Source: Eledone cirrhosa (taxonomy: Eukaryota). From it: a stretch of 64,000 bases of DNA. The stretch lies in assembly GCA_964016885.1 (NCBI GenBank), contig OZ024741.1:81530001-81594000 (forward strand). Reading direction: 5' to 3'. Under the pieces are notes generated by a model. That model was not told the DNA's origin and did no database searches. It worked only from the letters and a program-made list of their open reading frames with translations. Made by a program: the position numbers and the translations under genes. Every line of letters starts with the position of its first letter. Position 1 is the stretch's first letter. Below are positions 2,664-64,000 of this stretch, piece after piece.

Positions 2664-3326
2664 TTAATTGTAAGTTGTGATGTTGCTATTCCATTCATGC
2701 TTTCTATTTAATTTTGGTTGGAGTTCATTTATGTTTATTGCGTCTGTGATTTGTCTAAACATTGCGTCTTTTCTGTGTGTAGATTCTATTTTTATTTCTA
2801 TGTTCTCTAATTTGCCCTTATGTTCTATTTTAGCATGTTGGTGGAGTACAAATGATTCTTTTCTATCTTGAAGTTCTCGCCAATATTCATTTAACCGTTC
2901 TCCTATACTACGAGCTGTCTCACCTATGTACACTATATTCTTATCTCTACATTGTCCTTCAGTACATCTTATGCTATATACTACATTTCTAGTTTTACAG
3001 TTAATATGGGGGCTTAATTTACAGATTATACATTTCTTATCTATACAGGGAGGTCTTTGGAAAGGGTATGTATTGCTAATAAGTGTTTTTATGGAGGTAC
3101 CTGGTCTTTCTACTATCTTAATATTAAGTTTATGTTTATCTAGGGCCCTTCTAAATTTGTAAGCTAATTCAGCTCTAGGGGTTGTATTGATGAACATTAC
3201 ACTCTGGTATTTATTGCTATCATACCATGAGTTTATTCTATTAAACTTATTCCTAGTTCTTTCTATTCTATTCCAAAATTTGCTCCTATACAAGGGGCAG
3301 GTCCCATTTGTATCATTATTTCCCAT
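2664..3326 (-). pseudogene. PLE GIY-YIG endonuclease domain
   Basis: Cys-rich linker, VVY...YIGETARSIGERL, LHQH and PKLNRKHEW C-terminus. Confidence 0.88.
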
Positions 3327-3349
3327 TTTTTTCCCATTTGGTTCTGGCT

Positions 3350-4335
3350 TTATATTCTGATTTTATCCCTCTGATTGTAACCAGAGAACTGCATACGGTG
3401 GATGAAGTGTTGTATGTGTCTCATCACACGTACCAAATCCGCAAACAATATGTTGATTTTGGTGTGATCCGAAACAGCTGAGTTTCGGTGGATCAGATAT
3501 TTGGAAGTCATGGGTTTGGCATAATGGGAATGGAGGATGTGTTTTTTGTTATTAATAGTTTCTAACCAGAGCTCTGTGTCTAGTACAGGTAATCGATGGT
3601 TGGGGTGTTTGCTTGGGTAGTCTATAGTAACTCTAATACTCTGCTGGATGGAGTTAGCTATTTGCTGGATGCTTTCCATGGTTTTTTTCTCTAATTCCAG
3701 ACTGTTCTCTAGTGGGGGTGTTTTTACTACGATGTTTATATCATCAACGTAGCGGGTGTACATTATCAGGGTTAAGAGGTTGCTGTCTTCTAATTGTTCT
3801 TTAAGTTTAAGTTTAAGTCTATTGTCCCACCATACCATGAATAGGTTAACTATGTCACCTGCAATGCTAAAACCAATGGCTGCTCCCTCCTCTTGGGCAT
3901 ATGTCTTTCCATGAAATTTGAACATATGTTCCTTAAGGGTTAATTTTATACTGGCCCCCACCGCATGTGCAATCATTTTCTTTAGTTCATCGTGGTTTTC
4001 GGTGGTCCGTATGGCTATGGTCGTCCCGTTCCATCTTTCTGTGTGGGTTTTCTTGGCCATTGAGGTAATGGTAGGTGGTCTGCCTCTTGCTGGTCTTGTA
4101 GGGCACAGGTTTCTAAGGTCATATGTATCTAGATAACCATTACTATAGGTAAGTTTAAGTAGGAGTCCCAGCTCACTGGTATCAATCCCACGGAATTCAA
4201 CATTGCTCTCACTGATCATTTCTACGCATTTCTCCACAGCAAAATCCACGCCAATGGATGGATATAGGGACACAACATCCATACTACCTATTATACAGTT
4301 TGTTAGGTCCCTAGATCGGTTACTTTTGCTGATTC
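3350..4335 (-). pseudogene. PLE reverse transcriptase fragment
   Basis: DVVSLYPS, GAAIG, YTRYVDD, LPVLD and HYAKP motifs of PLE RT. Confidence 0.88.
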
Positions 4336-4858
4336 TGTATGGGCTTCGAAAAGAGCATAAAACGAGCAGTGACCCTGTCACAGGACCACCAACACGGCCA
4401 GTCTGTGGAGCTAACATTGCTAGTAACTACAGACTTTCCTACTTCCTCTCCCTGATCATACGCCCCATCATTGAAATGTCCCCAGATATATGTGACAGCA
4501 CGGAGGACCTCCCCAGCAGAATAACCGATCTAGGGACCTAACAAACTCTATAATAGGTAGTATGGATGTTGTGTCCCTATATCCATCCATTGACGTGGAT
4601 TTTGCTGTGGAGAAATGCGTAGAAATGATCAGTGAGAGTAATGTTGAATTCCGTGGGATTGATACCAGTGAGCTGGGACTCCTACTTAAGTTGGAGTGAA
4701 AGCAGCTGGTGCGTGTGTTTCTTATTGGCAACATGACACTCCCAAAGCATAACAATATCGGTTTCAACACACATTTTCAGATAAAGAATCTTGCTAAACA
4801 AATTCAGTAAGGAAATATATATATATACACATTGTGTTGTTATTTCTGTTTACCTTTT

Positions 4859-9275: not shown

Positions 9276-12052
9276 GTAGTCCTTTTTTAGACACAGCACA
9301 CAGACACAGAGTAACAAGATAAAACAAACACACAGGAGACACAAAATGTAATAAAAATCGTTAATTTAACCTCTAAAGAATTAACAACAGACCAAATCAA
9401 CATACTCTCCAAAGGTCTGAAATTTACACCAACTCCCCAACGAAAAACTACCCCGAAATGAAGGAAGATATTGCAGAATTCTGTAGAAAACTAAGACTCA
9501 GTAAGCAAGTATACGACAAATACAATGAGGATGACTCAATAGCCAGAAATAGAAGCAACTACACCCCACCAAAAGGCAAGAACAAATTCCTCTATCAATT
9601 CTGCGAACACATTACTAATTACCCATACCACCACCTACACAGACATAAACAAAAACCAAACCTAAAAAAAAGAATGGAATGGTCTTAACAGTCTAAAGAA
9701 CGACAAAACCCTAACAATCAAAGAGGCGGATAAAGGGAGTGCAGTAATCCTTATGGGGACAGATTACTACACGACTCTAGTACTCTCAACTCTAGAAAAA
9801 TCAAACATATTACGAAAAGGCCCAACACTACACACAACAGAAAATAATGAGAAACCTAAAATCCCTAACAACCCTTTACAAAGAAGGCCTTACCGACAAG
9901 GAATACAACTACATCACCAATTTCAAAAGCAGAACCAGTCTCTTCTACGGTATCCCAAAGACACACAAAAGTGAAGTAATAGCCAGGGCCTGCAAGCAAG
10001 CCACAGACATTTACATCAATATACCCCCTGCTGATGACCTTAAATTGAGACCCATAATAGCAGGTACCGCATGTGAAACCCACCACCTAAGCAACTTCCT
10101 AGATATTCTGCTTAAACCTTTCCTAAAACACATAAAAAGCTTCATAAGGGACGACCTTGACATGCTCAACCACCTCTCAACAACACTTAATAATAAACAT
10201 ACCCTATTAGTAACCTTTGATGTCATCAATCTATATTCCAATATCCCACACAACCTAGGTATAGAGGCAATACAATTCTGGCTTGAAAATTTCCCTAGTG
10301 AACTTCCACAGCGCATCCCTAAAGAATTTGTGTTGGAGGGACTCAAATTCATCTTGGAAAACAACTTCTTCGAATTCGATGCCAAATACTACAGACAGAA
10401 ATCTGGGACTGCCATGGGCACGCTAACCTTGTCATGGGATATTTGGAAACCACTCTCTACCGCAAAGTTCTACACAAATACGGTAACCTCTTCTACCTAC
10501 ACATACAAAAAAACTGGAAGAGATATCTGGACGACTGCTTCATCCTCTGGCATGAAAGTATAGAAAGACTGATTGAGTTTAAAACCCTTCTAAATGGACT
10601 CAACACAAACTTACAATTTACAATGGATTACAGCCATGAACAACTCCCTTTCCTCGACATCCTCACCAAGAAAACAAACAACAAAATAGAAACAGACATA
10701 TACTACGAACCCACAGACTCCAAACAGTATCTTCCATTCAACTCGTGCCACCCTCGCCATACCAAAATGGCAATTCCTTGTAACCTAGCCAGAAGGATCT
10801 GCACAATAGTTTCAGATAAATACACATGCTACACACGACTAGAAGAATTAAAGAACACACTTATCAGCAGAAACTACCCACCATCCCTAATCAACAATGG
10901 ATTCCAACGTGCCCTAAGACTCAACATCCAGGAACTCAGAGACCCCAAACCCAGGAATGAACTGCAACAGAAAACTCTACCATACATCTCCACACACAAC
11001 CCCCTCAACAATGAGGCATTCGACACCATCCTCCAGAACATTCCTTTAATAAAAAGAGACCCAAGAATGAACAAAATCCTCCAAACACACAACATCATAA
11101 AGAGCAAAAGACAACCTAAATCCATAAAAAACATCCTCACACAAGCCAAAATCCAACCAACCCTCACAATGAACCCTACAGTAAAAAAAATGCGGAAGGC
11201 CCAACTGTGGCATATGCATAAATCTAATAGTAGGTTCAACATTCCATTTTAAACAAGGTCAACATTTCACAGTTAAACACAACTTTACATGTGCATCTGA
11301 AAACCTAATCTATGTTTTGACCGGCTCAGGTTGTCAAGAGCACTACATAGGACAGACAAAAAACAGCCTCCGACAACGTATGACCGCCCACAGATCACAA
11401 ATCAAAATACAGGAATACAGAAAGATTGCTTTTAGTGAACATATCGCCAATTGTACACCTAACCAACATCCAAACTTTGAAATTTTCCTCATTTACAAAT
11501 TCATAGACAACGCTTCTTTCATCCCTCGTACCAATAAGGAAACGTACTTCATTAACAAATTCCAACCTCTACTTAATGGACTAAACTACGGACTAAACTA
11601 AAACTAGAACGAACAATGAACCAAAACCAAACCCGTATGTTCTCTAAAGAGTTACCACCCTCACACCCTACCTAATCCTTTTTCTTATATAAATGAATTA
11701 CCCCCTCTCATTTCTATCTCCGCTACCTGACCACCCTGAATTACCTCCCCCTGCATATTAACTCGCTAAAAAGGGAAATCATATCAAACCCCAGACTACC
11801 ATTTGCCTCCATTATGGATCAACTAAGCACTCTTGCCATAACACATTTTGAACTGCTTATCTTCAAGAACTATGCCTGTAAATAATATTATTTTTTCTTT
11901 CCCATTACCTTATCATGTTCCACATTACCCCTTTTTTTTCTTTTTTCTTTTCACTTCAAAAACCGTGTTTGTAAATAACATTATTCTTTCTTCACCATTT
12001 CCTTAACATGTTCAACATCACCAACATTTTACACCAATACAAATTCCCCCCT

Positions 12053-19192: not shown

Positions 19193-19275
<83 letters not shown>

Positions 19276-19397
19276 GGAGGTGAGTTTTACTGTAGTACAA
19301 TAAAGCAATGCAGATATCGGATAAGAAGCACTCTACAGTTTGTAGGACTGGAGTATACATAATATATAAGATCAAAAGATGGTTAAAGGAGTTCCAT

Positions 19398-19467
19398 GTA
19401 TTTTATTATGCGCATTTCAAAAACAAACATCATCATGCAAATATTTGTGTTTTCATCAGATAAAACA
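19398..19467 (-). ncRNA. Type I hammerhead ribozyme in 3' pseudo-LTR
   Basis: GUUUUAU-CUGAUGA-AAACACAAAUAU...AUGUUUGUUUUU-GAAA-UGCGCA-UA-AUAAAAU. Confidence 0.82.
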
Positions 19468-21033
19468 GGAGGACATGATATGAAGGCTAAAAAACACTTG
19501 TGGATAGTGCAGTTTTAAATCAACATATGAAAAGTAATTTTAGATTGATGTGTGATATTGGGAAAAATATTTTATTTAGAGAGGGGGGTGGGGTGGAAAG
19601 GATGAAAAAAAGGGGAGGAGATGAGAGTGAAGGTGGAGAGGGAGAGATGGGTGATAGAGAGAAAGAGATAGTTTTTATAACTGAGAAAAGATATATTGTT
19701 TTACATAGAGAGGTTGAAAACCGTTGGAAGATAATGTATAAATTAAAAGAATTTGAAAATTAACGAAGGGAAAAATATGTACGAAGAAGGAGAGGGAGTT
19801 AATATGTACTGAGATTAAAAAGTTTGATGATAGAGAGAAAAGAATAATGGATTGCGGATGAATATTCTAACGTCAAAAAAAAATGTGTGTATGTTTACAA
19901 GTATTATGGAAATTTGAAAATTAACGAAGAGAAAAATTATTAAGGTTTGTGTATTGAAGGATTTGAGAAAAATAATGTGAAGTTAAGGTTTGTATATTGA
20001 AGGAATTGATAATATGTGCGAACAAAGAGTTAATATGTATTAAGAATGAGTTAGATGATGGGGAGAAAAAAATAATAAATTAAGGATGAATAATCTGGCG
20101 TCAAAACAAATGTATATGTTACGAAGGATTTTACAAGGCGAAGATAGAGTGAGGGTAATGAGTAAACAAGTATTATAGAGTGTATAATACCCTTTGAAGT
20201 AAGGTAGGAAGATGGGTATATTTTAAAATAGGTGTATGTATATGTGCCTTTGAGAAAAGATTCTAAATTGATAAAGAATTGAATATTAGCTGTATACTTT
20301 GTGAAATGTCTTATGGAATTTATGCAAGCAGATAGAAAACAAATCTGTACGTCTATTTATTATAGAATCTAGATTAGAGATAATGGTAAATTTTTCATTT
20401 AGGCAGAGATTACAGATTTTAGATAGAGAGCTGTTCAAGGTTGAAGACGCAGAAGAAACCGTCTTCCAAAAGATGGTATATTTAATGTTTTTGTCTTTCA
20501 AGGACCATATGAGTTCTGAGAGAGCCATGTTGGTTCTTTTAAGTTTGTATTTAAAAGATGAATGATGATTATAGAGACGAGCTTTAAAAGAGGTGGAAGT
20601 GGAGCCAAAATAGGTGAAGGAATTGGTGCTAGTTATAACTTTCCATTCATAAATTAAGTTTTTATCAAGACAATGGTTGTTGAGAGAACATTTATTTTTA
20701 ATAGGGCAGTTGCAATTAGAGAGATTATTAATGAGTGACCTAGTGTTATCTATAGAAGGAATTGGATTGGAGAAGTTGTTTGCGATAGGAATAATAGTTT
20801 CTTGATTTAGAGTTGGATTATGAACATTTAGCGAAGTTGTGTTTGACATTGTATTTGGGTTTACAGAAATTAGCCTAGGGTTTACAATGACGTCGGGAGT
20901 ACTATTACTGTTATTATGAAATAAATAAAAATATTTTTCCCAATATCACACATCAATCTAAAATTACTTTTCATATGTTGATTTAAAACTGCACTATCCA
21001 CAAGTGTTTTTTAGCCTTCATATCATGTCCTCC

Positions 21034-21105
21034 TGTTTTATCTGATGAAAACACAAATATTATTGCATGATGATGTTTGTTTTTGAAATGCGCATAATAA
21101 AATAC
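21034..21105 (+). ncRNA. Type I hammerhead ribozyme in inverted 5' pseudo-LTR
   Basis: gttttat-ctgatga-aaacacaaatattat tgc atgatgatgtttgttttt-gaaa-tgcgca-ta-ataaaat; palindromic stem III. Confidence 0.82.
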
Positions 21106-21228
21106 ATGGAACTCCTTTAACCATCTTTTGATCTTATATTATGTATACACCAGTCCTACAAACTGTAGAGTGCTTCTTATCCGATATCTGCATTGCTTTA
21201 TTGTACTACAATAAAACTCACCTCCTAC

Positions 21229-21351
<123 letters not shown>

Positions 21352-26394: not shown

Positions 26395-26528
26395 AGGTAG
26401 TAGTAGTTGTTGTAGTAATAGTAAGTGTAGTTGTAGTAGTGATAGTAGTAGTGATGTTTGTGATAGAACTTGTAATAGCAATTGTTGTAGTGGAGATGAC
26501 AGCAATAGTAATACTAGTGGCGGTAGTT

Positions 26529-26585
<57 letters not shown>

Positions 26586-26613
26586 ATGGTAGAATCGTAG
26601 TTGTGGTGGTGAT
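26395..26613. repeat. (TAG)n microsatellite, degenerate then perfect
   Basis: Direct reading. Confidence 0.9.
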
Positions 26614-26813
26614 NNNNNNNNNNNNNNNNNNNNNNNNNNNNNNNNNNNNNNNNNNNNNNNNNNNNNNNNNNNNNNNNNNNNNNNNNNNNNNNNNNNNNNN
26701 NNNNNNNNNNNNNNNNNNNNNNNNNNNNNNNNNNNNNNNNNNNNNNNNNNNNNNNNNNNNNNNNNNNNNNNNNNNNNNNNNNNNNNNNNNNNNNNNNNNN
26801 NNNNNNNNNNNNN
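26614..26813. other. Assembly gap (200 N)
   Basis: Run of n. Confidence 0.99.
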
Positions 26814-28490
26814 CTTATGTCTAGTCCTATCTAAGCTATTCCATGATTTGCTCCTGTATAATGGGCAAATTCCTTTCATGTCCAGTTCTATGAGGGTCTT
26901 ATACTTCTCCGTGGCTCCTTCGTATGCTCTGATTCTGTCTCTTTGGTTGTAGCCAGAGAACTGCATGCGGTTGATGAAGTGTTGGATGTGTCTTTCCATT
27001 TCTGTTGGGTCGCACATGCGGCACACGTTCTTCATCACCCGTACCAAGTCTGCGATCAGAATATTAAACTTAGCCCTACTGGACATTGCTGAGTTTTTGA
27101 GTATCAGGTATTTGGAGGCCATGGCTTTAGCATAGTGTGTGTGGAGAATTTGGGCTCTCTCGTCTATAGCGTTAATCCAGAATTCCGTGTCTAATACAGG
27201 TAGTCTATTGTTAGGGTGTTTGGAAGGGTAGTCGATAGTTACAGTTATACTCTGGTGTATGGAATTAGCTATCTGCTGGATGCTTTCCATTGTGCTACGT
27301 TCTAAATTAAAATTGTTGGTACTCTCTTGTGGGGATGTCCTTATTATTATACTGATGTCGTCTATGTAACGAGAGTACATGATGAGGTCTATGGAGCTCT
27401 CATCAAGGAGATCTTTGAGTCTCCTTTCCCACCATACCATAAAAAGCTTGGCAACGTCACCAGCTATGCTGACGCCAATGGCTGCTGCCTCATTTTGGGT
27501 GTTGAACTTGAATATGTGGCCCTTTAGGGTAGTTTTGATACTGGCCCCTATTGCATGTGCGACCATTTTTCTTACCTGATCTTTGTTTTGGGGGGTCCGT
27601 ATAGCTTTGGTCCACCCAATCCACCTTCCCATGGGAGTCTTTTTTGCCATTGAGGTTATGGTGGGGGGTCTACCTCTTATGGGTCTACTGGGGCAGAAAC
27701 GTCTAAGGTCATGGCTGTCTAGGTAGTCAGTGTCGTAGGTAAGTCTAAGTAGGAGGCCCAGTTCGTCTGTGTCGACGTCGCAGAACTCCACCTCACTCTC
27801 AATGATCATCTGCACACATTTTTCCACAGCAAAATCAATGTTAATGGATGGGTACAGTGATACCAGATCCATTCTGCCTATTATGCAGTTGGATAGGTTC
27901 CTGTTTTTGTTGCACTCACTGATTCTGCTGAGGAGGTCCTCTGTACTGTCACATACATCTGGGGACATCTTGATTATGAGGCGTATAACCATTGAGAGGA
28001 AGTAGGAGATCCTGTAGTTGCTAGCTATATTTGCTCTGCATACATGTCTTGTTGGTGGTCCTGTTGTCGGGTCGTCGACTGTCTTGTGGTCTTTGCGGAG
28101 CCCATACAAGGGTGGTATGCCATTGTTAGACGCCTGGAAGTTGTTGGCAGTGCGTCTGCTTGGCCTTAGGATGTCGGTCCACATCATCATGTGAGCGTTG
28201 AGGATTTTCTCTCTCCCATCATGTATTTGCTGTGCAATTTCGCTCGTGTTGGTGATGTGGGGTTGCATAGCCTTGATCTAGTTCGGCATGCTGTCTATTG
28301 ACATCCTACCAGACTTATCCGTGGGTAGACATACTACCTCACCATCCCTTGTGCGCTGCTTGAGGCTAACCAAGCCTTCTACAGGTTTCCTCCCAAGTTG
28401 TTGGACCTCTGGTCTGCTCTGTTTACTATTTGTCTAATCTTATTTCTAGCTATGGTGAACTGTACCTCTGTCTCGTCATCTATTTGTTGT
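26814..28490 (-). mobile_element. PLE RT region related to 2279-4758, cut by the gap
   Basis: PTDKSGR, PPLYGLRKDHK, GPPTR, MDLVSLYPS, AIGVSIAG, RYIDD, LPVLD and MQFSGY; ~480 open codons. Confidence 0.92.
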
Positions 28491-45698: not shown

Positions 45699-46148
45699 TC
45701 TTTGTTGAACAAACAGGTGACGATCGGTTTGCAGAAAGAAATTTTTTTTTCAGAGATACCGTTGTGCAGTTTTGCCTGCTTGCTTGTCTATCTGTTTGTT
45801 TTGCTATAGTACTAGGTTTAAAAATATTCTACAGGTCTCAGTATTGTTTGAGACAAACCTTTCGCCAGACTTTAATTGTGTAAACAAATTTGGTGTCGGG
45901 AATTTAAGAAGATATTTAAAGACAAATAGATAGGAGTTCACTAGTTGAATTAGATGAATCTACAGAGTTGGCTGCTTTCGATACTATGGAAACAGTGAAT
46001 AACGGTGGCTCTACAATTCCATTGTGCTGGTCTCCTAGAAGTTCCAATTCTACTGTACATTGCATTGGGACTGAACTTGCTGTCTTGTCCTGCTTCACTT
46101 ATAGATGCGTTGATATATCTGTATTTAATTAGTTTCGTGATCCTTAGT

Positions 46149-46540
46149 AATTGTTTCTACTTTTGGCACAAGGTCAGCAATTATCCCAGTGCATTACTGG
46201 TCCTTTATTTTATCGATCACGTAAGGATGAAAGGCAATGTTAACCTCGGCGGGATTTGAACTCAGAATGGCAAGGGCCGTAACTCTATGCGTCAAAGCAT
46301 GGCGTCCGTCCCTCTACCGATACTGGCAATCCACCGCCTCTGATCCTTAATAATTGTTTATACTTTTGGCACAAGGCCTGCAATTATCCCAGTGTATTAC
46401 TGGTACTTTATTTTATCGACCCCATAGGACGAAAGGCAAATTTAACCACGGCGGGATTTGAACTCAGATCATAAAGGGACGTAACTCTATGCTACAAAGC
46501 ATGTCGTCCGACCCTCTACCGATAGTGCCAATCCACCGCC
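46149..46540 (-). mobile_element. Two tandem SINE family A copies
   Basis: Two ~200-bp units, each ending ...atccaccgcc.ctgatccttaataat. Confidence 0.88.
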
Positions 46541-46779
46541 CCTGATCCTTAATAATGATGTAAAGTCTGTGCATGGCGAATCGATTAACGCGGTCTTCTA
46601 TTTCTAGCTGGGAACATTGTCCTTTCGCTGTTATCTTTATTATTTATTTATTCATTTATTCAATTCAAACGTCCGTATAGAGCTAGTAAACAATGACAGA
46701 CTTGGGGAAGTATCGAGTACTCCTTACAGTTGGTAATCAAAAAGAGCTAGTGAGACAAATACAAAAAAGAAAAGAAAAA

Positions 46780-55610: not shown

Positions 55611-56222
55611 GGCGGTGGATTGGCAGTATCGGTAGAGGGTCGGACGCCTTGCTTTGCCGCATAGAGTTACGGCACTTTATGATCTGAGTTCAAATCCCGC
55701 CGAGATTAACTTTGCTTTTCATCCTTACGGGGTCGATAAAATAAAGTACCAGTCACGCACTTTGGTCAATTTCATCGACCCCCCCCCAATTGCTGGCCTT
55801 GTGCCTAAATAAGAAACCATTATTATTGTTATTATTATTTGGCAGTATCGGTAGAGGGTCGGACGCCATGCTTTGACGCATAGAGTTACGGTCCTTGCCA
55901 TTCTGAGTTCCATTCCCGCCGAGGTTAACTTTGCCTTTCATCCTTACGGGTCGATAAAATAAAGTACCAGTAATGAACTGGTAATTGCTGGCCTTGTGCC
56001 AAATGTAGAAACAACAATTATTATTATTATTATTACAAGGGCGGCGAATCGGCAGTATCGGTAGAGGGCTGGACGCCATTCTAGCATAGTTACGTCCCTT
56101 CACGGTCTGAGTTCAAATCCCGTCGAGGTTAACTTTGCCTTTTATCCTTACGGGGTCGATAAAATAAAGTACCAGTAATGTACTGGCTAATTGCTGGCCT
56201 TGTGCCAAAAGTAGAAACAATT
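55611..56222 (+). mobile_element. Three tandem SINE family A copies joined by (TTA)n tails
   Basis: Units at 55611, 55840 and 56040. Confidence 0.9.
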
Positions 56223-57616: not shown

Positions 57617-58119
57617 CTGTGGCTGCTTTCTTTTGTTCTTTGCCTAACATCAATTTCTATAAAGATTATTATTATTAATAATAATATTGGATAGAAGTGT
57701 GTATGATAGATAGGAAACAGCGAAAACCTATACCATCTAGTCGTAATGTTCAACCCTTCCTTTATCCCACACATTCTTCCTTAGTTTTCTTTCTTTCTTT
57801 TTTTTTCTTTCATTTTTTTCTTTCTTTCTTTCATTTTTTCTTTCTTTTTTTCTTTCCCTCCATCATTCTTCCGGTCCTTCCATCATTTCGTATCGAATTA
57901 TCTGCTTTCTTATAGAATATTAACACTTGTTTCACTTCTGCCACCACTACTACAACCACCACCGTGCAACGTGAAATAAAGCGGCGTGTTCAACGCATCA
58001 CGGGTCCAGAAGTTCAACTCAAGACCTTACGACCGTGAGATGAACATTCTAACTAACTAACTGGAAGGTAATATCCGTAGTGGTAGAGCACTCAGTCCAC
58101 GGGACGAGTTTGGTAGAAG

Positions 58120-59190
58120 TATTAACACAACAGTTAGTTCCCCATACCGAGAACAATTGTTTCACCTTGTGCGGATCTTCAGCTCGGACTGGTAATAGTT
58201 TTACGGAACATTTCTAAAATATTATTTACGAAGTTTCTAAATACAGTAGGAGGGTGGCATGCCACTCTCCTACTGATTTTAGAAACTTCGTAAATAATAT
58301 CAGTACTAGAATCTCTAACCTCTTCTCTAATAATGCAATCTTTGACAGAGCGGCCTCCTACTACAACACGGTGTTAGCTAACAGCGGCTTCTCGCAACCA
58401 ATTACTTACTCCCCCATTAACACCAACAGCAATAAGAAAACAAATCGTAACAATAGACAAAGTATCTGGTTCTCTCTTCCCTTCTCACTCAACGTTAAAA
58501 CTAATGTAGGAAAAAGGTTTTTAGCCCTCTTAGATAGACACTTTACCATAGGTCACAAATACCGCTCCAACTTTAACAGACACAGAGTAAAACTAGGGTA
58601 CTCCTGCGCTAAGAATATGAAGGCCCACATCACCAACAGTCCTAAGAGCAGCACCCCACCAGGATGCTGCTGCAGAAAGTCTGAGGCTTGTCCCCTTCAA
58701 CAGCAATGCAACACACCCGCTGTAGTTTATGAAGCTGTGGTCACTTCCAACCGACCAAATCAACCACAGGAGGTCAAATCCTATGTGGGTATGGCGGAGG
58801 GCCGTTATAAGGAGCGCTTCCTGAACCATCAGTCGACCATTAGGTACCTGGACAAACGATCATCCACGAAGAGCGCGAACCACGTTTGGTCCCTCAAAGA
58901 CTCAGGTATAGACTACTCCATTTAATAGAAAGCTATCACTAAGTCCAAGCTATATGCAAGGGGTAATCCGTCTTGTGGACTGTGTATTGAAGAAAGGATA
59001 AATATTCTAAGGACATTACGCAATATTCCAAGGAGATTAAGTGGTTTTGTGTCGGTGGGTGAAATGACCGTTTCTGCGCATGCGTTTTCATACGGTCGTA
59101 TTTCCTGTTCCGTATAACCATTACCGAGCTGGAGATCCGCACGAAGTGAAACAATTGTTCTTGGTATGGTGAACTAACTGTTGTATTAAT
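58120..59190 (+). mobile_element. 5'-truncated PLE with GIY-YIG region (58254-59040), 3' pseudo-LTR and inverted 5' pseudo-LTR piece
   Basis: IWFSLPFSLNVKTNVGKRF, CCCRKSEACPLQQQC, VVYEA...SYVG...YKERFLNH; 58120-58215 is inverted relative to 59100-59190. Confidence 0.88.
58146..58187 (-). ncRNA. Type I hammerhead ribozyme in inverted pseudo-LTR; the + copy at 59124-59164 has an A6G core change
   Basis: CCGAG-CUGAAGA-U-CCgcacaaGG-U-GAAA-CAAUUG-UU-CUCGG. Confidence 0.78.
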
Positions 59191-59321
59191 ACTTATATAT
59201 ATATATATATCAAGATAAGCAGAACAAGTAAAATTCAACCAATTTTTCAAAATAAATCAAAATTAATTTACAATTAAAATTAATCAAAATTAAAAAATAT
59301 AATATAAATATTTACCTATTC

Positions 59322-59411
59322 AAATGGCCCTTACTGTACAGTTTCACTTTGCAAAACATTAGATATCACATGGATATTAATGGAATAACAAAGATCATCA
59401 GAGAAGCATTT
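59322..59411 (-). ncRNA. Type I hammerhead ribozyme of the 519-bp unit
   Basis: AAAUGCUUCU-CUGAUGA-U-CUUUGU...GCAAAG-U-GAAA-CUGUACAG-UA-AGGGCCAUUU. Confidence 0.82.
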
Positions 59412-60289
59412 TCCTTTCCTAGGGTTAAAAACCTCAGGAACGATAAAATATATGGCCTCGTCTCCAACTGACACAGATCTGAAAGGTCGTAAAAGTGACC
59501 CGTATGTACGCTGGGGTGCAGTGAAGGCGGGAAATAGTAGACTTGTTGTCTATAGTCGCCACTAAAAAAAATAGCAGCTAGATAGAACGACAAATTTGTT
59601 CTCTACATAACGGAGAATAATGGATAAAGTTAATATATCTGAGGGTACAAGGTACCCCCAGAAATACATAGGTTGTCTATGATTCAAGGTGGTTCTATGG
59701 TAATAATTTGATATACCAGAACTTAATATCAAGATAAGCAGAACAAGTAAAATTCAACCAATTTTTCAAAATAAATCAAAATTAATTTACAATTAAAATT
59801 AATCAAAATTAAAAAATATAATATAAATATTTACCTATTCAAATGGCCCTTACTGTACAGTTTCACTTTGAAAAACATTAGATATTTTTTAATTTTGATT
59901 AATTTTAATTGTAAATTAATTTTGATTTATTTTGGAAAATTGGTTGAATTTTACTTGTTCTGCTTATCTTGATATTAAGTTCTGGTATATCAAATTATTA
60001 CCATAGAACCACCTTGAATCATAGACAACCTATGTATTTCTGGGGGTACCTTGTACCCTCAGATATATTAACTTTATCCATTATTCTCCGTTATGTAGAG
60101 AACAAATCTGTCGTTCTATCTAGCTGCTATTTTTTTTAGTGGCGACTATAGACAACAAGTCTACTATTTCCCGCCTTCACTGCACCCCAGCGTACATACG
60201 GGTCACTTTTACGACCTTTCAGATCTGTGTCAGTTGGAGACGGGGCCATATATTTTATCGTTCCTGAGGTTTTTAACCCTAGGAAAGGA

Positions 60290-60379
60290 AAATGCTTCTC
60301 TGATGATCTTTGCTTTTCCATTAATATCCATGTGATATCTAATGTTTTGCAAATTGAAACTGTACAGTAAGGGCCATTT
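60290..60379 (+). ncRNA. Type I hammerhead ribozyme, inverted-arm copy
   Basis: aaatgcttct-ctgatga-tctttgc...gcaaatt-gaaa-ctgtacag-ta-agggccattt. Confidence 0.8.
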
Positions 60380-60596
60380 GAATAGGTAAATATTTATATT
60401 ATATTTTTTAATTTTGATTAATTTTAATTGTAAATTAATTTTGATTTATTTTGAAAAATTGGTTGAATTTTACTTGTTCTGCTTATCTTGATATTAATTT
60501 CTGGTATATCAAATTATTACCATAGAACCACCTTGAATCATAGACAACCTATGTATTTCTGGCGGTACCTTGTACCCTCAGATATATTAACTTTAT

Positions 60597-60633
<37 letters not shown>

Positions 60634-60793
60634 AATTTTGAGTATATGTTGGTTGTCTACCGACAGCTCAGTATGCAGATTGGAGCACTCGACGAAGTAT
60701 GCAGGTTGGTTTGTTTACTCGGGATTAATGTAAAATAAAATAAGTAAGTCAAATATATAAAATTTGGCTTCGTTTATTACAAGTTATAAATTT

Positions 60794-60848
60794 ACTGCTA
60801 TATATATTTCGGTGACAGCTATTATAGGCTGTGACTTCTTCAGGCAGT
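60794..60848 (-). ncRNA. Type I hammerhead ribozyme (family H3 copy)
   Basis: ACUGC-CUGAAGA-AGUCACAGCCUauaaUAGCUGUCACC-GAAA-UAUAUA-UA-GCAGU. Confidence 0.75.
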
Positions 60849-61538
60849 CCGAATTAGTGTGGAAAAGACAGGTAGACATTTTGTTGAAGTGTGTTCCACT
60901 CTGTCAATTCATTGATATGTCCAGCTCCTGGGTGTGATGTTAGTCCTCCGAGGATCTGGAATCATATAGGCTAGAACAAACGAATTTAAGCGTCATAGGA
61001 CCCGCTCGTATCCCATTGGTCAGTTGTAAGACAACTCCTCAGTCAAAAGTCTATAGAAATTCTTCTGAGGCAGGTCAGCCTGTTATAGTTGTTTTTGTCA
61101 GAATATTTAAGTACAGCTGACCTTCACTGTGTTGGTAGTGGTAGTAGTGTTAAGAGGTCAGCTAGCAGGTCAACTTTAGTATGCTGCTGCTATGGTCTAA
61201 AGAATTTATGTGTGTAGACTGTAGACTGGTATCTATCCTGCCATCATTTCAGGTGAGGGGGGGGGGGGCACACAAATAAAGAATGCGTGTGTGTTACAAC
61301 CAATATAAAACATTTTGAAAAATATAAACTGATATAAAAAAAGCTGTGTGTCAGAATCGAGATGTGTAAATAATTCTTATTCTAGCATAGAGGTTGATTA
61401 GGCTGCTCCCACCACTGAGTATCTCGAGTTTGCACAATGTCAATTAGATCCTTAGGGATTTTTGTACAAGTTGAAAAGATATATATAATTCTTTCTATAC
61501 ATACACACACATGTACATGCACACATAAACACGCACTC

Positions 61539-61699: not shown

Positions 61700-63617
61700 A
61701 TATGAAAACAGGGAGAAAGAGACGATTATTAGGAAGAAAAATATTTTTTTTTCCTTTTTTGTTTCTCTCTCTCTTTTTTCTGGATTAGAAAATGATTAAA
61801 ACGAAATGTTTTACTTTGTGTGAAGTGTTAAGGTATTAGTTGATTCATTTATTATTTAACAATGGCATTTATTTATCTATTTATATAATTAATTATTGTC
61901 TATTACCGGTTTCAGCATTTTTATGCATTATCAAATAATAGTAAAATGTATTAGTGTGGTGTCGCACATGTTAAACAGAAGGTGCAGAAAGAATAATGTT
62001 ATTTACAAACAAAGTTTATGAAGTGAAAAGAAAAAAGAAAAATGAAAAAAAAACGTGCATAATGCGGAACGTAAAAAGTCAATGTGGAAGAAAAAATAAT
62101 GTTATTTACAAGCACAGTCATTGAAGTTAAAACGTGTTAATATAGCAAGAGTGCTTAGTTGATCCATGATTCCGTGATGGAGGCAAATGGTGGACTGAGG
62201 TTTGATATGATTTCCCTTTTTAGAGAGTTAATATACAGGGGAAGCAATTCTTGCTGGGTGATATTTAATTTATTTAAGAAAAAGGATTAGGTAGGGTGTG
62301 ATGGAGGTAACTCTTGTAAATGTTTGATTGTTTGTTGCAGTTTTAGATTGGTCCGATTTTTAGAGCATTAAGTAGGGGTTGAAATTTATTAATGAAATGT
62401 GTTTCCTTATTGGTACGTTGGATGAAAGTAGCGTTGTCTATGAATTTATAAATGGGGAAAATTTTAAAGTTTGGATGTTGGTTGAGAGCACAATTGGCGA
62501 TATGTTCACTAAATGCAATCTTTCTTATTCCTGTATTTTAATTTGTGATTTATGGACGGTCATACGTTGACGGAGGTTGTTTTTTGTCTATCCTATGTAG
62601 TGCTCTTGACAACATGAGCAGGCAAAACATAGATAAGGTTTTCAGATGCACATGTAAAGTTGTGTTTAACTGTGAAACGTTGTCCTTGTTTAAAATGGAA
62701 TGTTGAACCTTCTATTAGATTTATGCATATGCCACAGTTGGGCCTTCCGCATTTTGTTACTGTAGGGTTCATTGTGAGGGTTTGTTGGATTTTGGCTTGT
62801 GTGGGGATGTTTTTTATGGATTTGGGTTATCTTTTGCTCTTTATGTTGTTGTGTGTTTGGAGGATATTGTTCATTCTTGGATCTCTTTTTAGTAAAGGAA
62901 TGTTCTGGAGGATGGTGTCGAATGCCCCATTGTTGAGGGGGTTGTGTGTCGAGATGTATGGTAGAGTTTTTTGTTGCGATTCATTCCTGGGTTTGGGGTG
63001 TCTGAGTTCCTGGATGTCTAGTTTTAGGGCACGTTGGAATCCATTGATGATTAGGGATGGTGGGTAGTTTCTGCTGATAAGTGTGTTTTTTAATTCTTCT
63101 AGTCGTGTGTAGCATGTGTATTTATCTGAAACTATTGTGCAGATCCTTCTGGCTAGGTTACAAGGAATTGCCATTTTGGTGTGTCTAGGGTGGCACGAGT
63201 TGAATGGAATGTATTGTTTTGAGTCTGTGGGTTTGTAGTATATGTCTGTTTCTATTTTGTTGCTTGTTTTCTTGATGGGGATGTGGAGGAAAGGGAGTTG
63301 TTTATGGCTATAATCCATTGTGAATTGTAAGTTAATGTTGAGTCCATTCAGAAGGGTTTTGAACTCAAACAGTCTATCTATACTTTCATGCCAGAGGATG
63401 AAGCAGTCGTCCAGATATCTCTTCCAGTTCTTTTCTGTATGTTGGTAGAAGTGGTTGCCGTATTTGTCTAGAACTTTGCGGTAGAGAATGGTTTCCAAAT
63501 ATCCCATGACAAGGTTGGCGTATGAGGGGGCCACTTTCGTGCCCATGACAGTCCCAGATTTCTGTCTGTAGTATTTGCCATTGAATTCGAAGAAATTGTT
63601 TTCCAAGATGAAATATA
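61700..63617 (-). mobile_element. Second, 5'-truncated copy of the PLE family at 8690-12215
   Basis: ORF 62827-63672 is nearly identical (FILENNFFEF...RYLDD...KPTDSKQY) to 10350-11110; GIY-YIG remnant and pseudo-LTR follow. Confidence 0.93.
61900..61940 (-). ncRNA. Variant hammerhead (U3-A8 core)
   Basis: UUAU-UUGAUAA-U-GCAUaaaaAUGC-U-GAAA-CCGG-UA-AUAG. Confidence 0.65.
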
Positions 63618-64000
63618 CGTACGATGTAATATATACAGTATTTCTTCTCCCAATCAGCATAATCAACCACACAAAAAATCAATTAAACAAGGCTATAAGA
63701 TTAAAAGGCACCTATGAAGACACAATAGATAAATAAACGATAGCTATCTATCCGCGATCAACAGCCACAGAATATTTACCCAGTATTTCTAATAGCCCGT
63801 GGAAATCGATTAGATATATCGCCAACCATACACAATTAGGTACAAAATCAAAGTTAGAAGAAAAAATGTATATAAGCAAACACCAAAATTATGTCTCTAC
63901 CCCATGAGATTTCATTCGCTTTTTGGAAATATCCGATCAAGGATAAATTCACGAGTTTCGAAATCATCAGGAAACAAACTCAATTGGACAAAGATTTTTC

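Follow-up and report, generated by a model that had tools for sequence, protein, structure and literature searches.

What is a 519-bp non-coding repeat that bears a hammerhead ribozyme (HHR), forms two inverted, incomplete tandem arms and lies between TA tracts beside Penelope-like retrotransposons (PLEs), and how did it reach this position? The repeat was found in the window, i.e., the whole 64,000-nucleotide stretch of Eledone cirrhosa DNA analysed here, which belongs to G000:C2 of a 3.0-Gb assembly. Based on the structure of the element, its relatives in the same genome and their ends, we regard it as one insertion of a dispersed non-coding HHR repeat family, a non-LTR retrozyme, that was probably copied into place by a PLE enzyme.

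Structure of the element

The element consists of two head-to-head arms of 1.31 and 1.39 units, with unit positions (phases) numbered such that window position 59882 is 1:

59196..59210, no strand: TA tract at the left end (shared target), from the sequence
59207..59885, minus strand: left arm, phases 454-519, 1-519 and 1-94; 679 bp, 1.31 units
59332..59850, minus strand: cut-to-cut 519-nt monomer, a predicted linear or circular RNA, from fold prediction
59882..59885, no strand: head-to-head junction, a 4-bp ATAT overlap of two 5'-truncated ends
59882..60600, plus strand: right arm, phases 1-519 and 1-200; 719 bp, 1.39 units
60599..60630, no strand: TA tract at the right end (shared target), from the sequence

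Direct repeats in the element are spaced by 519 bp and the arms are 99% complementary. Both arms point outwards, towards the TA tracts on either side. The 3' end of the left arm corresponds to the short one of two fixed sites described below (phase 94), where its ATAT merges with the TA tract, while the right arm ends at the long fixed site (phase 196-203) and carries a tail of ~105 nt past the short site. The longest ATG open reading frames of the circularised unit comprise 35 codons in sense and 37 codons on the other strand. This agrees with the first-pass annotation, which had described a unit without an ORF that repeats head-to-tail for about 1.3 units, then flips for about 1.4, and runs into (TA)n at both ends.

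The annotation had also suggested folding the monomer. The cut-to-cut monomer is more stable than expected, with a z-score of -3.54 and none of 100 shuffles equally stable, and the circular monomer folds with -119.9 kcal/mol. The four hairpins that had been named from the sequence are all present in the minimum-energy fold of the cut-to-cut monomer.

A dispersed family with two fixed ends

Exact matches to a 19-mer ending at phase 94 occur 685 times in the assembly (reversed control 0), those to the HHR core 213 times (reversed control 1), and those to an HHR motif common to the sister families described below 1241 times (reversed control 0). As the first 100 of the 685 19-mer matches represent 65 loci, several hundred loci are a fair extrapolation. 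We mapped 143 loci; after four segmental duplicates were dropped and matches under 40 nt ignored, 139 loci remained, with 196 arms not cut by the retrieval edge. This sample combines best-match and position-ordered searches, and the strict subset used below contains the position-ordered ones. One search pattern ends at phase 94 and thus favours the short-site class; the loci obtained with the HHR-core pattern show the same two ends as those obtained with the phase-94 pattern.

The outer ends of the arms fall at two sites, 129 of the 196 at phase 88-98 (118 of these exactly at 94) and 56 at phase 187-203, with 11 elsewhere. These fixed ends, located about 125 and 230 nt past the predicted ribozyme cut, together account for 185/196 arms, and 173 of the 185 meet (TA)3 within 12 nt. 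The inner 5' ends of the 196 arms, in contrast, are variable, which corresponds to 5' truncation. Hence, the tabulation of end phases that the annotation had called for modifies its view of permuted arms: the variation holds for the inner ends, whereas the outer ends are fixed.

Single arms occupy most of the 139 loci, with 73 short-site, 8 long-site and 1 unclassified arm; TA is found on their 5' side in 61 of 82. The head-to-head loci comprise 44 mixed, 2 short+short and 1 long+long pairs and 5 with an unclassified end, and the remaining loci are complex (3) or lie at the retrieval edge (2). Thus 44 of the 47 classifiable head-to-head loci have one arm per site (p = 1e-10 versus 50%). The junction shows an overlap of 0-8 bp in 36 of the 52 head-to-head loci. 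The element in the window is the standard two-arm type of its family. Because copies nearly always end at one of two fixed points, the 519-bp unit was likely spread by the borrowed enzyme of a PLE.

The hammerhead ribozyme

Two complete and one partial HHR are located in the element:

59322..59411, minus strand: complete type I HHR in the left arm, with cleavage predicted between 59332 and 59331
59841..59885, minus strand: 3' half of a second HHR in the left arm, with cleavage predicted between 59851 and 59850
60290..60379, plus strand: complete type I HHR in the right arm, with cleavage predicted between 60369 and 60370

The core motif CTGATGA, at 60300 (+) and 59401 (-), is followed by GAAA, the palindrome ACTGTACAGT and the GUA site, and the cut is predicted directly after phase 488. 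According to the sequence and the phase map, the half HHR in the left arm holds GAAA, the palindrome, the GUA site and the 3' strand of stem I. Stem I, read from the sequence, has 9 of 10 pairs, two of them G-U. The motif thus is as the annotation had given it, a type I HHR with canonical core, GUA site, palindromic stem III and 9/10 pairs in stem I, except that stem II closes with a U-U mismatch throughout the 519-bp family and the usual closing G-C pair is absent. In the right arm a private G-to-T change at 60354 breaks the next pair and weakens the base of stem II. Since one further pair is lost in addition to the U-U closure, activity of the right-arm HHR appears doubtful.

Isolated HHR segments fold no better than shuffles and their minimum-energy structure is not the hammerhead fold. 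A search against Rfam gave no match at gathering threshold anywhere in the window and no hammerhead match up to E = 5 around the element. We therefore base the HHR call on its motif and on covariation. An intact core is present in 153 of 171 family copies, and the cut triplet is GUA or GUU with no other variation. In an alignment of ten sequences, the two HHRs of the window and eight chosen for diversity, 93.5% of the stem cells are paired and 7 of 28 pairs are changed on both sides, with 36-44% paired in slid controls; these sequences are related and the structure was drawn from them, so that shuffle counts are not probabilities. The stems covary across the sister families, and the stem III palindrome is maintained through double changes (ACTGTACAGT, ACTGATCAGT, ACCGATCGGT). 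Judged by these patterns, the HHR is under selection. Palindromic short stems III make dimeric hammerheads possible, as stated in the available text of PMC4209133. In vitro, one of nine predicted frog retrozymes cleaved, according to the available text of a recent preprint (Li, Clavereau and Pollet 2026, bioRxiv 10.64898/2026.07.22.740005), and PLE insertion went ahead without need of HHR cleavage in the accessible part of PMC11167929.

Neighbouring and autonomous Penelope-like elements

The TA tracts are bordered by a PLE-type element on either side:

58114..59195, plus strand: left neighbour, a 5'-truncated Hydra-type PLE and separate insertion, with CxCX5C linker and its own HHR
60631..61460, minus strand: right neighbour, 3' end of another HHR-bearing, TA-targeted PLE-type family; right boundary approximate

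The ORF of the left neighbour (58218-58925) contains the CxCX5C linker and an endonuclease-like C-terminus; a Pfam search with this ORF gave no match. This PLE carries its own short, different HHR and an inverted pseudo-LTR. An 82-bp palindrome (window 58219-58300) lies at its inversion junction and is the source of an Rfam match to 'mir-5728', which we discarded as a spurious microRNA match. The family of the right neighbour has two end classes, too. The annotation had noted that the element directly abuts a PLE end, which is correct but holds on both sides and not on one. A link to the left PLE was rejected, as it has no sequence similarity to the unit (z below 1) and a different HHR. The three adjoining elements simply share one TA tract, and the flanking PLEs are separate insertions.

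A parent PLE of the unit was searched for in several ways. The likeness of the unit to four PLE ends was no better than that of shuffles (z of -1.6 to 0.7), and a pseudo-LTR relative, as used for classification in the available text of the 2026 preprint, was found neither among these four ends nor in the unmasked locus sequence. No parent was detected by sensitive BLAST of the unit against masked loci, by a survey of HHRs in the flanks, by PLE proteins upstream of HHRs, in two autonomous families, or in 40 further loci chosen by the conserved HHR motif. In the mapped loci, 15 regions of a sister family and the 40 further HHR-motif loci, no copy of the unit is joined to an ORF. The 5' side of each copy is instead more unit, an inverted arm or flank, and in the two loci with a PLE protein match upstream a TA tract lies between the match and the unit. 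As no sampled copy is joined to an ORF with RT and GIY-YIG domains, the unit is not an ordinary pseudo-LTR, the alternative that the annotation had set apart from its own view.

The same genome contains a young Hydra-type PLE with many open frames of 821 aa, which apparently is an active autonomous element. In all 30 loci sampled, its end lies at one of two sites, about +45 or +132 nt from the cut of its own HHR, which leaves a tail of about 85-90 nt. Both adjacent head-to-head pairs in the 30-locus sample are mixed, but the head-to-head copy at window 19273-21230 is long+long, so that mixed pairing is not strict in this family. With its TA targets, this PLE (window 19273-21230; L330-L359) is a candidate partner without sequence likeness to the unit. 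An abundant older RT-endonuclease family occurs at window 9796-11601 and 62633-63678 and in L300-L329. From its motifs we take it to be Neptune-like; a pattern search gave no palindromic HHR close downstream of its ORF. PLE-type RT remnants with a long insertion in the fingers region, presumably Naiad-like by their motifs, are located at window 2664-4426 and 26514-28277 on the minus strand.

Sister families and other repeats

A young sister family has a unit of 481 bp. Its best copies are 99-100% identical and its arms extend up to 7.4 laps. It shows the same two ends, with 9 of 9 mixed pairs among 15 regions, and its HHR has a G-C closing pair in stem II. Copies are found at L196:1-2042, at L226:9545-10000 (G000:C1:115575545-115577640) and in L230-L259. 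The same two ends are found in additional sister units (L260-L299), which measure about 485 bp and are 80-90% like the 481-bp one.

More distant HHR-bearing repeats with a long stem II and a palindromic stem III lie beside TA tracts (L100:2748-3901; L187:500-1080; L172, minus strand, near the end); no long ORF was seen in the stretches read, and two of them share short motifs with the 519-bp unit downstream of the cut. The genome thus seems to contain several retrozyme-like families. In the window, an HHR-like core on the minus strand (63627-64000, CTGATGA at 63970) resembles the L172 repeat by eye. Tandem repeats with a period of 202-219 bp, SINE-like by eye, are present at 55620-56220 and 46138-46556, and a similar sequence follows a PLE-type HHR in L213.

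Templates of the copies

Arrays reach 2.3 laps in the 519-bp family. Each arm in the window contains one complete HHR, while two are found in 26 of the 196 family arms. Within an arm, 46 of 1588 polymorphic positions (2.9%) differ between laps, compared with 43% between loci; for the two arms of one locus the number is 49 of 1072 (4.6%), compared with 39%. Variants that occur in 5 or more loci are present in both laps in 491 of 540 cases, but this holds for only 9 of 105 singleton variants, a proportion that later mutations would be expected to give. In a tree of 89 near-full laps, which forms a ladder of nested lineages, the laps and arms of a locus mostly group together, and the two arms of the window are sisters (support 100/97). 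The homogeneity of laps and arms, the shared variants and the ladder-like tree indicate that each insertion was copied from one variant, and that re-amplification of variants, from a single unit to several laps, took place repeatedly. A circle explains this re-amplification simply. The cut site inside the arrays was passed cleanly, with 1 indel in 199 passages, and template-jump scars were not found at this site. Recurrent lap-specific variants, as expected from a few linear masters, were likewise dismissed: of 296 lap-specific variants, 248 occur once, and one deletion in a 17-bp internal repeat accounts for most of the commonest recurring ones.

The positions at which arms stop provide additional information on the template. 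Of all short-site arms, 15/47 stop at or just downstream of the second cut site, but 7/126 at the first. In the strict census the respective numbers are 5/17 and 3/50 (Fisher p = 0.021), and in a second set of loci 4 of 13 arms stop at the second site (p = 0.018), all with a stop window chosen after the data had been seen and with small counts. Because the sequence is identical at both passages, microhomology alone does not explain the difference. The excess suggests that part of the insertions used linear RNA templates with the upstream ribozyme cut as their 5' end; a plain circle would not predict stops to be commoner at the second than at the first passage. If the long arm ran into the short primer on one and the same RNA, long arms should stop near phase 84-106; such stops amount to 6/54 and 4/16 (p = 0.058 and 0.008), with a hairpin base and AT microhomology also present at this position. 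The same features lie where arms stop at exact whole laps (3/51).

Some of the homogeneity could arise in DNA. In one sister array of 7.4 laps a variant is present in laps 1 and 4 only, i.e., DNA-level duplication occurs or is mimicked in at least one array. One sister locus has a site that is uniform over the three laps of one arm but distinguishes the two arms. The similarity of laps and of arms could stem from such DNA-level events, and conversion between inverted arms can occur. Rolling-circle copying of a circular RNA, as assumed in the annotation, is plausible, given sister arms of up to 7.4 laps and variants common to laps, and we infer a circular RNA of the unit. Taken together, we settle on a mixed template pool in which circles occur alongside cut linear multimers.

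Comparison with Penelope-like elements

The available text on the anole Poseidon element PAc describes two internal RT starts that define the tail, shown in vitro, and an enzyme that cuts and extends both strands of AT-rich DNA, has unprocessed RNA as its main substrate in vitro and reportedly primes without homology to the target (PMC11167929). The accessible parts of PMC8557442 and PMC3846280 give as PLE traits incomplete tandem copies, a neighbouring inverted copy with 5' truncation, a tail at one end and (TA)n as target. The 519-bp family has two fixed internal 3' ends, 5' truncation, an inverted copy with one tail, and (TA)n targets, within which a target-site duplication would be hidden. 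By analogy, the combination of two RT starts, a tail, an inverted 5'-truncated copy and TA targets is the known PLE signature. Like the endonuclease-bearing PLEs (Poseidon PAc; the Hydra and Naiad clades; Adineta Penelope), the unit shows tandems, an inverted copy, two starts and the same kind of target, with both RT starts downstream of the HHR. In contrast to these, it has no ORF, its tail is ~105 nt long instead of 30-40 nt, although long tails also occur in other PLEs of this genome, such as the Hydra-type family above, and its ends show AT microhomology, whereas PAc reportedly primes without homology to the target. The Chlamys elements that are non-autonomous, e.g., MRC1, likewise are PLEs with multicopy head-to-tail insertions; according to the available text, however, most Chlamys elements lack a canonical HHR, and the 3' end of a non-autonomous element is similar to that of its autonomous partner, a likeness not found for the 519-bp unit (PMC8557442).

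The annotation had assigned the inverted arm to a PLE-style inverted second strand. The PLE-style inversion is retained, but instead of a copied-back strand, a second cDNA primed at the second internal site is the better reading of this arm. LINE-1 twin priming is comparable in that a cDNA is primed from each of the two target ends and microhomology joins both cDNAs head-to-head. The 519-bp unit differs in that both starts are fixed internal sites and the arms copy overlapping sequence.

Comparison with published retrozymes

Metazoan non-LTR retrozymes consist of tandem units with type I HHRs and give RNAs of 170-400 nt in linear and circular form, with PLEs as proposed mobilisers, in the accessible text of Cervera and de la Pena 2020 (PMC7229834). 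The available part of the 2026 preprint reports units of 51-972 bp and argues that retrozymes are non-autonomous PLE derivatives. The 519-bp family corresponds to these elements in its non-coding, AT-rich tandem units with one type I HHR each, in the absence of an LTR-type structure, in its structured monomer and in the coexistence with PLEs. With no ORF-joined copy in the sample, the retrozyme-type, non-autonomous nature proposed in the annotation is supported. The unit is longer than the RNAs of PMC7229834 but within the 51-972 bp given in the available text of the preprint, so that the view of an unusually long unit is abandoned. With its tandem type I HHR units, non-coding sequence, lack of LTR structure and structured monomer, the 519-bp repeat is, by its sequence features, a new non-LTR retrozyme family of an already published element type.

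The family also shows dispersed, 5'-truncated, TA-targeted copies with two fixed 3' ends and inverted arms, for which the available retrozyme texts give no description; the words 'inverted' and 'microsatellite' are absent from the main text of PMC7229834. For published retrozymes, expression and circles were demonstrated in the accessible text of this paper, while the 519-bp family is known here from its sequence. Both retrozyme papers, in their available parts, base the case for mobilisation by PLEs on ribozymes in common, joint occurrence and likeness to pseudo-LTRs, without settling the mechanism (PMC7229834; bioRxiv 10.64898/2026.07.22.740005), and the role of the HHR in PLE transposition is held open in the available texts of PMC11167929 and PMC8557442. 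Retrozyme end statistics of this kind were not found in the literature searched, which covered few subscription papers.

Proposed mechanism and alternatives

In the proposed mechanism, tandem copies would be transcribed, and cleavage by the HHR would take place at GUA or GUU, perhaps in a double hammerhead formed via the palindromic stem III. The endonuclease-RT of a PLE would cut both strands of a TA tract, and each cut end would start a cDNA at either of two AU-rich sites inside the RNA. Extension of both ends would yield two cDNAs, joined head-to-head by a few bases of microhomology, which is the structure found in the window. The templates would exceed one unit, and some would be linear RNAs with the upstream ribozyme cut as 5' end. 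Ligated monomer circles would likely supply the multi-lap copies and in this way regenerate tandem sources. Only tentatively do we extend this to a record of the whole retrozyme cycle in the arrays, with a dimeric PLE enzyme, priming from both ends of a cut TA tract at two different positions on one ribozyme-processed RNA, several laps around a circle and a stop at the ribozyme-made end.

The same non-autonomous PLE family could also do without circles if all templates were linear read-through transcripts of tandem sources, with DNA-level duplication, gene conversion or precise template jumps restoring the tandems or making them uniform. The enrichment of 5' ends at the second cut site, the variant confined to laps 1 and 4 of the 7.4-lap array and the use of unprocessed RNA as main PLE substrate in vitro (available text of PMC11167929) are in line with this idea. 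However, as only 26/196 arms have two complete HHRs and arms are 5'-truncated, purely linear copying should erode the arrays. Moreover, many nested lineages have their variants in both laps, and a single indel in 199 cut-site passages speaks against sloppy jumps, so that we consider this alternative rather unlikely. A derivation from DNA alone, in which a satellite or DNA-transposon-like repeat spreads through recombination or DNA rolling circles with the HHR as passenger or chance motif, would account for the tandem arrays, for the Rfam searches without an HHR match and for the isolated HHR segment folding no better than shuffles. It has very little probability, because fixed 3' ends with ragged 5' ends, mixed pairing, TA targets, covarying HHR stems and stops tied to the cut site fit reverse transcription.

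The end anatomy of the family is that of PLE pseudo-LTRs and the sample covered part of the family only, which would allow the copies to be truncated solo ends of the pseudo-LTR of an autonomous PLE. What lies upstream of each copy, nevertheless, is further unit sequence, an inverted arm or flank, arrays reach 2.3 laps and 7.4 in the sister family, and a TA tract separates the unit from the PLE protein match in two loci, all of which make such an origin highly improbable. An assembly artefact as the cause of the inversion is scarcely credible. Among the public contigs shown (short ones only, from three runs of one sample), which have loose TA ends at phase 94, none bridges the junction; yet several bases distinguish the two arms, and the head-to-head form recurs in 52 loci whose junctions are not the same.

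Implications

The 519-bp family adds evidence at the level of individual insertions, namely the two-start signature of PLEs, the use of one site per arm and the enrichment of 5' ends at the ribozyme cut. The insertion process of such elements is likely recorded in these fixed ends. The 481-bp sister family is the best material for experiments, and its 99-100% identical copies, together with an apparently active autonomous PLE, make the question testable. If the arrays do record the whole cycle, HHR cleavage would shape PLE-type insertions in vivo, and the young sister family and the intact Hydra-type PLE would allow the cycle to be rebuilt in vitro.
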